Source: a virus
Lineage: Duplodnaviria > Caudoviricetes
Virus record (IMG/VR): IMGVR_UViG_3300010376_000113
Coordinates: 1-26,841 of that record
Strand: one strand, 5' to 3'
Length of the DNA stretch: 26,841 bases
A program made the position numbers and the translations under genes. Shown here piece by piece: positions 1,795 to 3,751 of the stretch (position 1 is the first letter of the stretch; every line of letters starts with the position of its first letter). The notes under the pieces were generated by a model. That model saw only the letters and a program-made list of their open reading frames with translations, ran no database searches and had not been told where the DNA came from.

Positions 1795-2560
1795 GATCTT
1801 CTTCTTCCTGGCGTCGTAATCGGACCAGCGTGCGCTCCAGCTCGGAGATCCGCTCGGTGCGGCGCTGTCGTTTAGCTGCCTTCTCTTCTTCAGGGCTCAG
1901 CTTTCGGAGCCCGGGAATGACTGGCAGCTTGATCAGCTCGTCGATCTTCGCTCGCTGCTCAGGACTCAACGGCGGGAACCCGCAGCAACGCTGACAATGC
2001 TGGGGGCCGCCGCCCCATGAATGGCCGGCGAATCCGCAGTCGGGATGGTCCCGGCGATATCGCTCGTTCTCGTCAGCCGAACGGTCACCTGTCCACGGCA
2101 CGCCGCAACCGGGGCAAGGCAGCCCGGCTTTCGCTTCCTCGTAGGACATCAGCCGGGCGGGATGCATTCGGCACATGCTGATCATGAATGCCTCTTTGTC
2201 TCGCTCAGCCGCCTCGGTGTCATAGGCGCTCGTCAGCTCTTCTAGCGGCATCCCCAGAACTTCGGCCACAAGTGGCAGTTTGCGCTTGGCCATCATGGGC
2301 CTGTCATGATGAAAAATATTGTTGACGGTCGCAGCGCCCAGCAGCCGTATAGCCTTTTTGCGGTCGAAGTAATCATGGTCGGTAAGGAGATTCGCTGCGT
2401 GGTCGATGAAACAGTCGACAAAGGCCCGGCTGGCGCGGAAGTCGTGTTGTCTGATCCATTGCAGATATTGGGGATGCAGTCGGCCGTTTTCTAAACGCCT
2501 GGGATCATCTAGGCGGGGACGGAACATTCGGGCCAGCTCCGAGGTGCTCTCAGTGGCCAT
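1787..2560 (-). CDS. Hypothetical protein: XRE-like helical segment, Cys/His-rich putative Zn domain, C-terminal coiled coil
   Basis: TVNNIF...LPLVAEVLGMPLEEL; CPGC...H..C...HCQRCC; charged tail; visibly more AT-rich than flanks; start uncertain. Confidence 0.7.
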   Translation of the reverse strand: MATESTSELARMFRPRLDDPRRLENGRLHPQYLQWIRQHDFRASRAFVDCFIDHAANLLTDHDYFDRKKAIRLLGAATVNNIFHHDRPMMAKRKLPLVAEVLGMPLEELTSAYDTEAAERDKEAFMISMCRMHPARLMSYEEAKAGLPCPGCGVPWTGDRSADENERYRRDHPDCGFAGHSWGGGPQHCQRCCGFPPLSPEQRAKIDELIKLPVIPGLRKLSPEEEKAAKRQRRTERISELERTLVRLRRQEEEDRE

Positions 2561-2844
2561 GGCGGCGTTCGAAGTCGTCGAGCATCCGGCGGCTGCGGAA
2601 GGCGAGCCCGAACGCAGATGAGGTCCGGTCGTTCAACGTTGCTCCAGTCGACGGTCTTCAGGTCGCCCAGATTGGGCACGCCAGGCCAGTGTTTCGCCAG
2701 CACCCGACTGGCGTAGGGGTTGATCTCGGATTGCCAGATGACTTTCATCCCGGCCCGTTCGAGGCCGAGGTCAAGTCCGCCGATCCCTGAGCATTCCGAG
2801 CCGACTGTGAGCTGCGGATAATGGGCCTTATGCGGACTAGACAT
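2509..2844 (-). pseudogene. Truncated C5-cytosine DNA methyltransferase (N-terminal motifs only)
   Basis: LTVGSECSGIGGLDLGLERAGMKVIWQSEI...LGDLKTVDW...PDLIC, then diverges before the catalytic GGFPCQ motif. Confidence 0.75.
2811..2838. other. dif-like tyrosine-recombinase site 2
   Basis: Minus strand AGTCCGCATAA-GGCCCA-TTATCCGCAGC, same orientation and core as site 1. Confidence 0.6.
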
Positions 2845-2861
2845 CCTGGCCTGACCCCGAG

Positions 2862-2929
2862 CGCGACAGAAGGCCCCCGTTGGGAGCCTTCTCGTCGTCG
2901 GAACCGCGTGAGCGGGCCGGATCGCAAGT
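2862..2929 (-). ncRNA. Candidate small antisense RNA complementary to the adjacent tRNA
   Basis: 2899-2929 is an inverted copy of tRNA segment 3013-3045; preceded by TGCTACACT and followed by a strong hairpin; ends inferred. Confidence 0.6.
2868..2892 (-). terminator. Terminator-like hairpin
   Basis: AGAAGGCTCCC-AAC-GGGGGCCTTCT (11-bp stem, one G-U); no clear U-tract. Confidence 0.55.
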
Positions 2930-2936
2930 AACGACC

Positions 2937-2945
2937 AGTGTAGCA
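2937..2945 (-). promoter_or_regulatory. Putative extended -10 promoter for the antisense RNA
   Basis: TGC-TACACT; shares CCCT-NN-TACACTG with the element upstream of the tRNA. Confidence 0.5.
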
Positions 2946-2969
2946 GGGACTGTCGCAAGCAGCCCCTGC
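2943..2969 (-). terminator. Hairpin in the tRNA 3' trailer
   Basis: GCAGGGGCTG-CTTGCGA-CAGTCCCTGC (10-bp stem, one G-U). Confidence 0.5.
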
Positions 2970-2984
2970 GGGTTAGTGCTGCGG

Positions 2985-3068
2985 CGGAGCGTGTGGGATT
3001 CGAACCCACGGGACTTGCGATCCGACCGCTTATCAGGCGGTTCCGTTCGGCCTCTCCGGCAACGCTCC
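2985..3068 (-). tRNA. tRNA with anticodon GAU (Ile) on a class II tRNA-Ser-type body; CCA not encoded
   Basis: GGAGCGT-TG-CCG-GAGAGGCCGAA-CGG-A-ACCGC-CTGATAA-GCGGT-C-GGAT-CGCAA-GTCC-C-GTGGG-TTCGAAT-CCCAC-ACGCTCC-G; all stems pair. Confidence 0.92.
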
Positions 3069-3078
3069 GTCACTGAAC

Positions 3079-3084
3079 AGTGTA
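3079..3084 (-). promoter_or_regulatory. Putative -10 element for the tRNA
   Basis: TACACT 10 nt upstream of tRNA G1; no canonical -35. Confidence 0.45.
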
Positions 3085-3101
3085 CTAGGGGGGTGTGACC
3101 G

Positions 3102-3188
3102 TTATCGGGCATGACGTCTAGCCTCCGCGTTGCGGGAGTTGCGCTTACGGCAGACCTTGCAAGAGCGATGCACCCGGTTATCGGTCAT
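3102..3188 (-). CDS. 28-aa basic CxxC peptide, possibly a gene remnant
   Basis: ATGA overlap; MTDNRVHRSCKVCRKRNSRNAEARRHAR. Confidence 0.4.
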   Translation of the reverse strand: MTDNRVHRSCKVCRKRNSRNAEARRHAR

Positions 3189-3751
3189 GGGACCAGCCGC
3201 CCTTGTGTCAGGCAGCGCAGCGGATGCGCCTCGCGGGCCAGGATGTACCGGCCAACGTCGAGCGTGTACCCGTCGGGCGTGCCCGGGCACTCGTGCCAAT
3301 GCCGGCCGTGCATCGAACGCACCTGCTCCCACCACTGCGCCGGGGTGACGTCGACGTACTGGCGGGAGTCGACCGGGGTCAGGCGGCGCACCCGAAAGCT
3401 AACGATGGGATTCTGCGCCTCGAGCTGGCGAATTCGGTGGTTGAGATCGTCGATCTCTTGCTGCACCTCGGGCGACCGGTCGATGCGCCAGGCCACCCCG
3501 AACGCATCGAGGCCGGCGGCGGTAGCGAGTTTCTTGCTGACCTGGACGCCCTTGTCCATGAGATCCTGGCCGACGTCGCGGAATTCCTCGTAGATGGCCA
3601 GCGGGTCCCGGCAGAAGTGGCAGAACTCGGTCCAGTCCCGGTCGGCCACGTCGAGCCGGTGGCCGGTGCGCCGATAGATCTCGGGCAGTTCGTCGCGGTG
3701 AGCGGTCGAGAACGTCAGATCAATGCCGGGATTGCGGCGGTGGCGACTCAT
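3185..3751 (-). CDS. Hypothetical protein, possible PD-(D/E)xK-like nuclease fold with CxxC
   Basis: ATGA overlap with the MTase stop; DVADRDWTEFCHFCRDPLAIYEE pattern; function is inference. Confidence 0.65.
   Translation of the reverse strand: MSRHRRNPGIDLTFSTAHRDELPEIYRRTGHRLDVADRDWTEFCHFCRDPLAIYEEFRDVGQDLMDKGVQVSKKLATAAGLDAFGVAWRIDRSPEVQQEIDDLNHRIRQLEAQNPIVSFRVRRLTPVDSRQYVDVTPAQWWEQVRSMHGRHWHECPGTPDGYTLDVGRYILAREAHPLRCLTQGRLVP

Follow-up and report, generated by a model that had tools for sequence, protein, structure and literature searches.

A candidate RNA-only toxin-antitoxin cassette joining a serine-body tRNA to a predicted antisense RNA in phage and bacterial sequences

Transfer RNAs that combine a serine body with a non-serine anticodon have been described both in nature and by design. 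Allo-tRNAs (PMC5389517; reviewed in PMC7609411) are of this kind, and those with serine identity and Leu anticodons were reported to insert Ser at Leu codons and to kill E. coli; they are also described near protein toxin-antitoxin genes (PMC5389517). Engineered yeast tRNA-Ser with GAU or GAA anticodons, tS-I(GAU) and tS-F(GAA), are lethal by Ser misincorporation, and these synthetic, eukaryotic molecules are described as controlled by tRNA decay, not by antisense RNA (PMC6125640). Among toxin-antitoxin pairs, type I hok/Sok carries an adjacent antisense RNA, its toxin, as in type I generally, is a small protein, and the full-length toxin transcript is inert through a 3' fold-back until slow trimming (PMC9841398). 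In type VIII both toxin and antitoxin are RNA (PMC8610362, PMC12737573): SdsR is an mRNA-targeting small RNA overlapped on the opposite strand by RyeA, which neutralises it by antisense pairing, while in CreTA the toxin CreT acts by sequestering a rare tRNA, and repression by CreA goes through Cascade.

Here we describe a protein-free cassette of 240 bp in a 26.8-kb virus record (26,841 nt, the whole stretch of DNA analysed and hereafter the window), in which a serine-body tRNA with an isoleucine anticodon lies next to an inverted copy of its own centre. Since matched pairing between such tRNAs and antisense segments recurs in dozens of phage and bacterial sequences, the cassette is likely an undescribed all-RNA toxin-antitoxin pair.

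The cassette in the window

The window has a GC content of about 68% and carries terminase, portal, capsid, amidase, RecT, HTH and methylase genes. An integrase-like ORF (8973-8089) has no Pfam or PHROG match, and because it was assigned by its motifs we go no further than inferring a temperate lifestyle. Among the matches listed, the closest cassette architectures were found in Acidimicrobiales and other Actinomycetota assemblies. Elsewhere in the window, an HNH endonuclease ORF runs on into a VRR-NUC domain (1520-705) and an N6/N4 methylase has a long unassigned N-terminal region (4995-3748).

The tRNA gene lies on the minus strand at 2985-3068, with a GAU anticodon at 3034-3032; it was called Ile-GAT by ARAGORN and scored 52.8 bits against RF00005. 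Its cloverleaf is of the 7/5 type (acceptor 7 bp, T stem 5 bp), no CCA is encoded, and serine identity features are found in G1-C72, G2-C71, A3-U70, C11-G24, G73 and a long variable arm, the variable region being 15 nt (3024-3010). G73, G1-C72, G2-C71 and the long variable arm, which mark the tRNA-Ser class under the rules given in PMC9976931, are all present; in the relatives described below the same identity bases were demanded by the search pattern. The window tRNA is a predicted Ile-to-Ser mistranslator, although serine charging may be weak, given a short variable arm of 4 pairs and a bulge or wobble. The loop region of this arm, UCGCAAG (minus strand, 3014-3020), is the target of both antisense elements of the cassette.

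Upstream of the tRNA is a predicted -10 hexamer, TACACT (minus strand, 3079-3084). Comparable boxes occur in relatives, where 9-10 nt separate the end of a -10-like hexamer from G1 (L073, L089, L334, L262, L051, L282, L322, L386 and L231). Seven nucleotides upstream of the -10 stands a GTCACACC element (minus strand, 3092-3099), probably a promoter or regulator site, and motif plus -10 have their sole exact match in the window here. A 13-nt direct repeat upstream of this promoter (3101-3113 and 3177-3189, 12 of 13 identical, spacing 76) is a possible operator.

The antisense block (minus strand, 2899-2929) would form the 5' part of a predicted anti-tRNA RNA of 65-70 nt. Pairing with the variable arm is perfect over its first 12 nt, and the remainder pairs with the anticodon stem. 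A previous sequence-only reading had described this segment as an inverted copy of the tRNA centre and proposed co-folding as a check, and both points are borne out. The alignment score is 36, reached by none of 5000 dinucleotide shuffles (maximum 31), and the best of 528 other 200-nt window segments scores 24; co-folding gains -19.7 kcal/mol, a value reached by none of 300 shuffled partners (mean -5.1). In a read-through precursor, fold-back (-110.6) would be preferred over the cloverleaf (-93.3). An extended -10 (TGC-TACACT, minus strand, 2937-2945) is predicted for the antisense RNA and is followed by a 7-nt spacer before the block begins at 2929, a register that is shared in the family. 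The predicted terminator is a strong hairpin (minus strand, 2863-2897), which is without a U tail in the window; U tails on the corresponding hairpins were seen in Planctomycetota members. A generic scan of positions 2500-3500 found no sigma-70 promoter and no U-tailed terminator, so the promoter and terminator assignments in the window rest on family comparison. At gathering score, Rfam recognised the tRNA alone in the window and in 20 family loci, and the antisense RNA matched no family.

Downstream of the tRNA, a trailer hairpin (minus strand, 2943-2969) exposes a 7-nt loop, CUUGCGA (2959-2953), which complements the variable loop. The loop CUUGCG faces the variable loop CGCAAG in the window, L089 and L282, and CUUGGG faces CCCAAG in L249/L267 and L334, a co-variation that amounts to one base pair in five lineages (CGC/GCG versus CCC/GGG). 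Any such 7-mer at that distance occurs at 3 of 105 non-family tRNAs. We infer a cis kissing loop that holds the precursor inert, by analogy with the hok 3' fold-back; the hairpin may double as a terminator of the tRNA transcript. In most tandem loci the stretch from the tRNA to the antisense promoter lacks a hairpin, so the precursor there could be kept inert by read-through fold-back.

The extent of the cassette (minus strand, 2862-3099) was drawn from a contig of run X3 that matches the window over this interval alone, with 17 substitutions and 3 gaps. Its anticodon and both TACACT boxes are those of the window, while a G-U pair of the trailer hairpin is A-U. The tRNA pair 28-42 changes from C-G to U-A and, at the base that corresponds to position 42, the antisense copy acquires an A, a change found in this one contig at a depth of 4.2. 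A contig from another study is identical to the window over 2813-3289, so the GAU anticodon is not an assembly error. Re-checked against the sequence, the positions earlier given for the TACACT box, the tRNA, the hairpins, the second -10 and the antisense block all hold.

Directly downstream of the cassette lies an N-terminal fragment of a C5 DNA methylase (minus strand, about 2810-2600; Pfam positions 7-66 of 324). It is truncated and followed by a lower-GC ORF of 257 aa (2560-1787) of no known family, for which Pfam and PHROG gave no match and HTH leads stayed below threshold. Both were rejected as parts of the cassette, as the X2 and X3 contigs diverge from the window before them.

Relatives in viral and bacterial sequences

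Degenerate serine-body tRNA patterns were run on viral, metagenome and GTDB contigs. A first strict pattern returned no loci on viral contigs; the strict pattern used here, with serine identity bases and A35 fixed, gave at least 177 matches and at least 154 distinct tRNAs. Before counting, 24 of the 154 with fewer than four anticodon-stem pairs were dropped, leaving 130 among the matches listed. Many of the 24 look like misregistered Ser-UGA, and three of them (L249, L267 and L298) carry copies; conversely, L290 and L332 were kept in the counts despite looking like chance or terminator matches. A copy was called when it matched the core of its own tRNA with a score of at least 25 within 250 nt. 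Copy-bearing tRNAs fall into 38 clusters (under 88% identity), and the window's own contig, L281, is counted among both the 44 tRNAs and the 38 clusters reported below.

Among the matches listed, 44 of 130 serine-body NAN tRNAs carry a copy of their own core (41 of the 114 with full flanks), as against 1 of 63 serine(GCU) tRNAs of the same body pattern; in a further control set of canonical serine tRNAs, the copy score was at most 22. Co-variation with the tRNA had been proposed as a check on related Ser-body tRNAs with non-Ser anticodons, and it is seen: the cognate score averages 34.6 versus 12.4 for non-cognate pairs and is the best in 41 of 44 (among the matches listed), with a co-fold energy of -15.9 kcal/mol against -3.1 kcal/mol for 190 non-cognate pairs. 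The anticodons of the 44 are GAU (18), GAA (13), UAG (4), GAG (1) and UAU, CAU, CAG and CAA (2 each); per cluster, GAU accounts for 15/38 and GAA for 12/38. A separate C35 scan yielded 8 loci, three Arg(CCG) tRNAs among them scoring 30-39. Two Arg(CCG) cassettes on one contig (L525/L526) score 30 and 39 with their own copies and 12 and 19 when crossed. No viral loci were found with NGB anticodons, and 120 further loci gave 95 distinct tRNAs, all with serine anticodons; as these loci cover 15 of 64 parts of the collection, the anticodon range is not exhausted. Other anticodons were also seen on serine bodies, corresponding to Trp, Gly, Arg, Asn or Val: CCA (L522, L527), UCC (L523), CCG (L521, L524), GUU (L103) and CAC (L104). 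L527 has a 12-nt complement of its own variable arm behind a TTGACA promoter, with a score of 24.

Named hosts include Planctomycetota, Acidimicrobiia, other Actinomycetota and Myxococcota assemblies. Distribution is sporadic and accessory, the cassette being present in 1/401 and 2/401 sampled genomes (all known seeds), and a BLAST search of the cassette against phages and plasmids matched the tRNA part alone.

No copy was detected for 73 of the 114 full-flank serine-body NAN tRNAs, including 9 of 23 GAU clusters (among the matches listed), and a wider whole-locus search of 69 negative clusters gave weak matches at most, in 4; such tRNAs can thus exist without this antidote. Where position 34 is G, C or A, 31 of 56 clusters have a copy, versus 5 of 49 with U34 (among the matches listed), a contrast confounded by GC content and kinship and expected if the antidote is needed for tRNAs reading common codons. 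Yeast toxicity, by comparison, is reported to be poorly predicted by codon usage. The 44 serine-body U34 clusters without a detected copy have UAA, UAU, UAG or UAC anticodons (e.g. L232, L247, L259, L362, L382), and variable arms of the type GUGCU(C/G)A(C/U)ACCAC are common to several of these tRNAs. A-ending codons would be misread by this group, which might act against AT-rich invaders. Phage serine-body tRNAs with the stop-reading anticodons UUA or CUA (L081, L097, L082, L083, L084, L087, L093) were also seen, with no antisense copy. A second long-arm tRNA group, mostly GAU, has the first 1-3 bases unpaired with the 3' acceptor strand (tRNA at about 400-490; L001, L010, L064, L076, L016, L021, L027, L031, L042, L071, L092, L086, L099). 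In L001, L010, L064 and L076 a leader hairpin runs into the tRNA 5' end and a terminator follows, and L064 carries, upstream, a sequence complementary to the 5' strand. This group is possibly another way of caging a mistranslating tRNA.

Three arrangements were observed among the 44 (among the matches listed): tandem downstream (24), direct downstream (15) and upstream (5). In direct-orientation loci a promoter-like box lies on the opposite strand, mostly convergent, with a hairpin between the two genes. The sequence-only reading had left open whether the segment acts as a small RNA or as a fold-back trailer of the precursor; direct copies under a convergent promoter (15/44) are not fold-back trailers and predict a separate RNA, which is thereby favoured, while tandem loci could use both. 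Upstream copies in Myxococcota-type loci (L255, L359, L363, L345) are complementary to the variable-arm 3' strand and end in a U-tailed hairpin before the tRNA, with no -10 at the usual spacing.

The start site of the antisense RNA had been placed just after the second -10 of the window, and much of the family keeps this register: 24 of 38 clusters have a -10 hexamer whose end lies 3-10 nt upstream of the paired block, versus 6.5% of 4322 control windows. The hairpin after the copy averages -23.8 kcal/mol, versus -14.6 kcal/mol in 79 control windows. L079 combines a TTGACA-17-TATACT promoter with a U-tailed terminator; duplex energy by itself (-27.0) does not set this AT-rich locus apart. In 36-37 of 38 clusters the paired region takes in the variable arm's 5' strand and loop, in agreement with the earlier claim that this arm is the target. 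The bulged-out anticodon described for the window, on the other hand, is not conserved as a family trait, as the alignment spans the anticodon in 17/38 clusters and pairs all three of its bases in 9/38. Variable loops of the family (38 clusters, among the matches listed) average 5.6 nt and are 58% pyrimidine; those of 189 canonical serine tRNAs average 4.8 nt and are 26% pyrimidine.

Possible functions of the cassette

We consider it probable that the cassette is an RNA-only toxin-antitoxin pair, with the serine-body tRNA as toxin and the predicted antisense RNA as antidote. This interpretation, already put forward in the sequence-only reading, gains computational support from the cognate co-variation, the register of the start site and variable-arm targeting. 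In the proposed mechanism, the host SerRS would charge the tRNA with serine, because SerRS reads the variable arm and not the anticodon, and the charged tRNA would insert Ser at AUC/AUU codons, to which 243 of the 257 Ile codons in 18 phage genes belong, with proteotoxic effect. The 5' end of the small RNA would nucleate on the variable loop and unzip the variable arm and anticodon stem, which would remove the SerRS identity element and probably trigger decay. In the subfamily of the window, the trailer hairpin would kiss the same loop and keep the precursor inert until 3' trimming, as in the hok fold-back. A stable tRNA paired with a less stable antidote would punish prophage loss or transcription shut-off. 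With slightly less confidence, we still favour a broader generalization, in which such cassettes are widespread, protein-free selfish or defence elements consisting of a functional tRNA that breaks the code, with Ser inserted at Ile, Phe, Leu, Met or Arg codons, a small RNA that strips the SerRS arm through a programmable variable-loop address, and a hok-like kissing-loop trailer.

An antisense small RNA targeting the tRNA is predicted equally if the cassette is a triggered switch or if the tRNA does not decode. The toxin-antitoxin pair could serve addiction, abortive infection or regulated mistranslation; a triggered switch in place of addiction is considered unlikely. As a switch, the antisense RNA would hold the tRNA off until a signal such as DNA damage, superinfection or prophage induction, upon which proteome-wide Ser misincorporation would abort infection or slow the cell. 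The pairing evidence fits it just as it fits a toxin-antitoxin pair. Regulated transcription is suggested by the GTCACACC motif or a near variant, found upstream of 12 of 46 antisense-bearing tRNAs versus 1 of 105 others, yet it is restricted to an actinobacterial-type subfamily. Such an element lies just upstream of the tRNA -10 in L051, L073, L089, L249, L262, L267, L282, L322, L334, L354 and L355, and is present at L525 and L526. Its position resembles that of a PafBC/RecA-NDp site, a motif that exists in Actinobacteria. Several chromosomal members sit amid housekeeping genes and have no mobile gene closer than 2.5 kb, which would suit a switch, but no conserved sensor or partner gene accompanies them: no family is common to the 92 ORFs from 25 loci, and neighbours range from housekeeping to capsid, HTH and transposase genes. 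Moreover, AUC mistranslation would strike the phage's own genes.

It is improbable that the tRNA does not decode at all and serves as a serine carrier, or as a decoy for anticodon nucleases, IleRS or tRNA-modifying enzymes, with the antisense RNA tuning its level or maturation. Some allo-tRNAs are reported as inactive in translation (PMC5389517), L249, L267 and L298 keep an antisense copy next to weak anticodon stems, and CCA is encoded in just 3 of 38 clusters. Against this, anticodon loops are canonical, with 7 nt and U33 (demanded by the search pattern), the anticodons vary (Ile, Phe, Leu, Met, Arg), X3 shows a compensatory anticodon-stem change, no transferase is found nearby and a harmless carrier would need no cognate inhibitor.

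The last two explanations together have a very small probability. One holds the copy to be a DNA-level relic (an attachment-site scar, a tRNA-linked repeat or a template-switch duplication), and short direct copies beside tRNA genes can indeed arise so; this is already largely refuted and most improbable. None of the 38 clusters was found to copy the T arm or the 3' acceptor strand, by which an attachment-site scar or tRNA-linked repeat was rejected, copies are almost missing next to canonical serine tRNAs, and the copy exists in either orientation, promoter and hairpin lying on the antisense strand each time. Mismatches also lean toward RNA pairing, with 21 G-U versus 2 A-C across the variable arm plus the 3' anticodon strand; this zone was picked after the test on the whole lenient alignment, where the bias was weak (46 versus 30, p=0.085), and outside it the bias is reversed (5 versus 10). 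Least probable of all is reassignment of AUC to serine by phage or host with the antisense RNA timing the switch, which the serine body and Ile anticodon would fit, but which is refuted for the portal gene, where 14 AUC sites aligned with 119 homologues are mostly Ile/Val/Leu and Ser makes up 1.1% of 1659 residues, and is further opposed by hosts G001 and G005, which retain a short-arm tRNA with the same GAA anticodon, and by the differing anticodons of close relatives.

Comparison with known systems

Literature searches, with most subscription journals outside their scope, returned no description of this architecture; the main text of PMC5389517 nowhere uses 'antisense' or 'complementary', nor does the review text of PMC7609411 use 'antisense'. 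If the toxin-antitoxin reading is true, the cassette would include a natural tRNA that acts as a toxin through mistranslation, as well as an antisense RNA dedicated to switching off a tRNA, neither of which was found described in the literature searched. It would also give a reason why wrong-anticodon serine-body tRNAs persist, a question left open by the allo-tRNA work. Annotation pipelines label such genes tRNA-Ile, -Phe or -Leu, and miss both serine body and antisense partner. The small size, orthogonal pairs and host SerRS as the sole need would make the cassette easy to test and a useful on/off control for engineered and suppressor tRNAs.

The cassette shares the serine body and non-serine anticodon with allo-tRNAs, but its 7/5 tRNA differs from their 8/4 or 9/3 arms and tRNA-Sec-like D arm (PMC5389517; PMC7609411). 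GAU and GAA, the anticodons of the lethal yeast constructs (PMC6125640), are the two that dominate the family. With hok/Sok (PMC9841398) it has in common an adjacent antisense RNA and, as proposed for the trailer hairpin, an inert full-length transcript; a small-protein toxin is lacking, neither the cassette nor its flanks holding a conserved ORF, and what is targeted is an identity element of a tRNA. By definition, the cassette would fall under type VIII, whose known members, as described in PMC8610362 and PMC12737573, differ in their toxins and modes. Both partners are predicted non-coding RNA genes, from promoter, pairing and hairpin register, and by computation the antisense RNA pairs with its tRNA in a cognate-specific manner, as is expected of a type VIII antitoxin and as RyeA does with its own target. 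Unlike in SdsR/RyeA and CreTA, a tRNA here takes the part of the predicted toxin, and a separate, non-overlapping gene that of the antidote.
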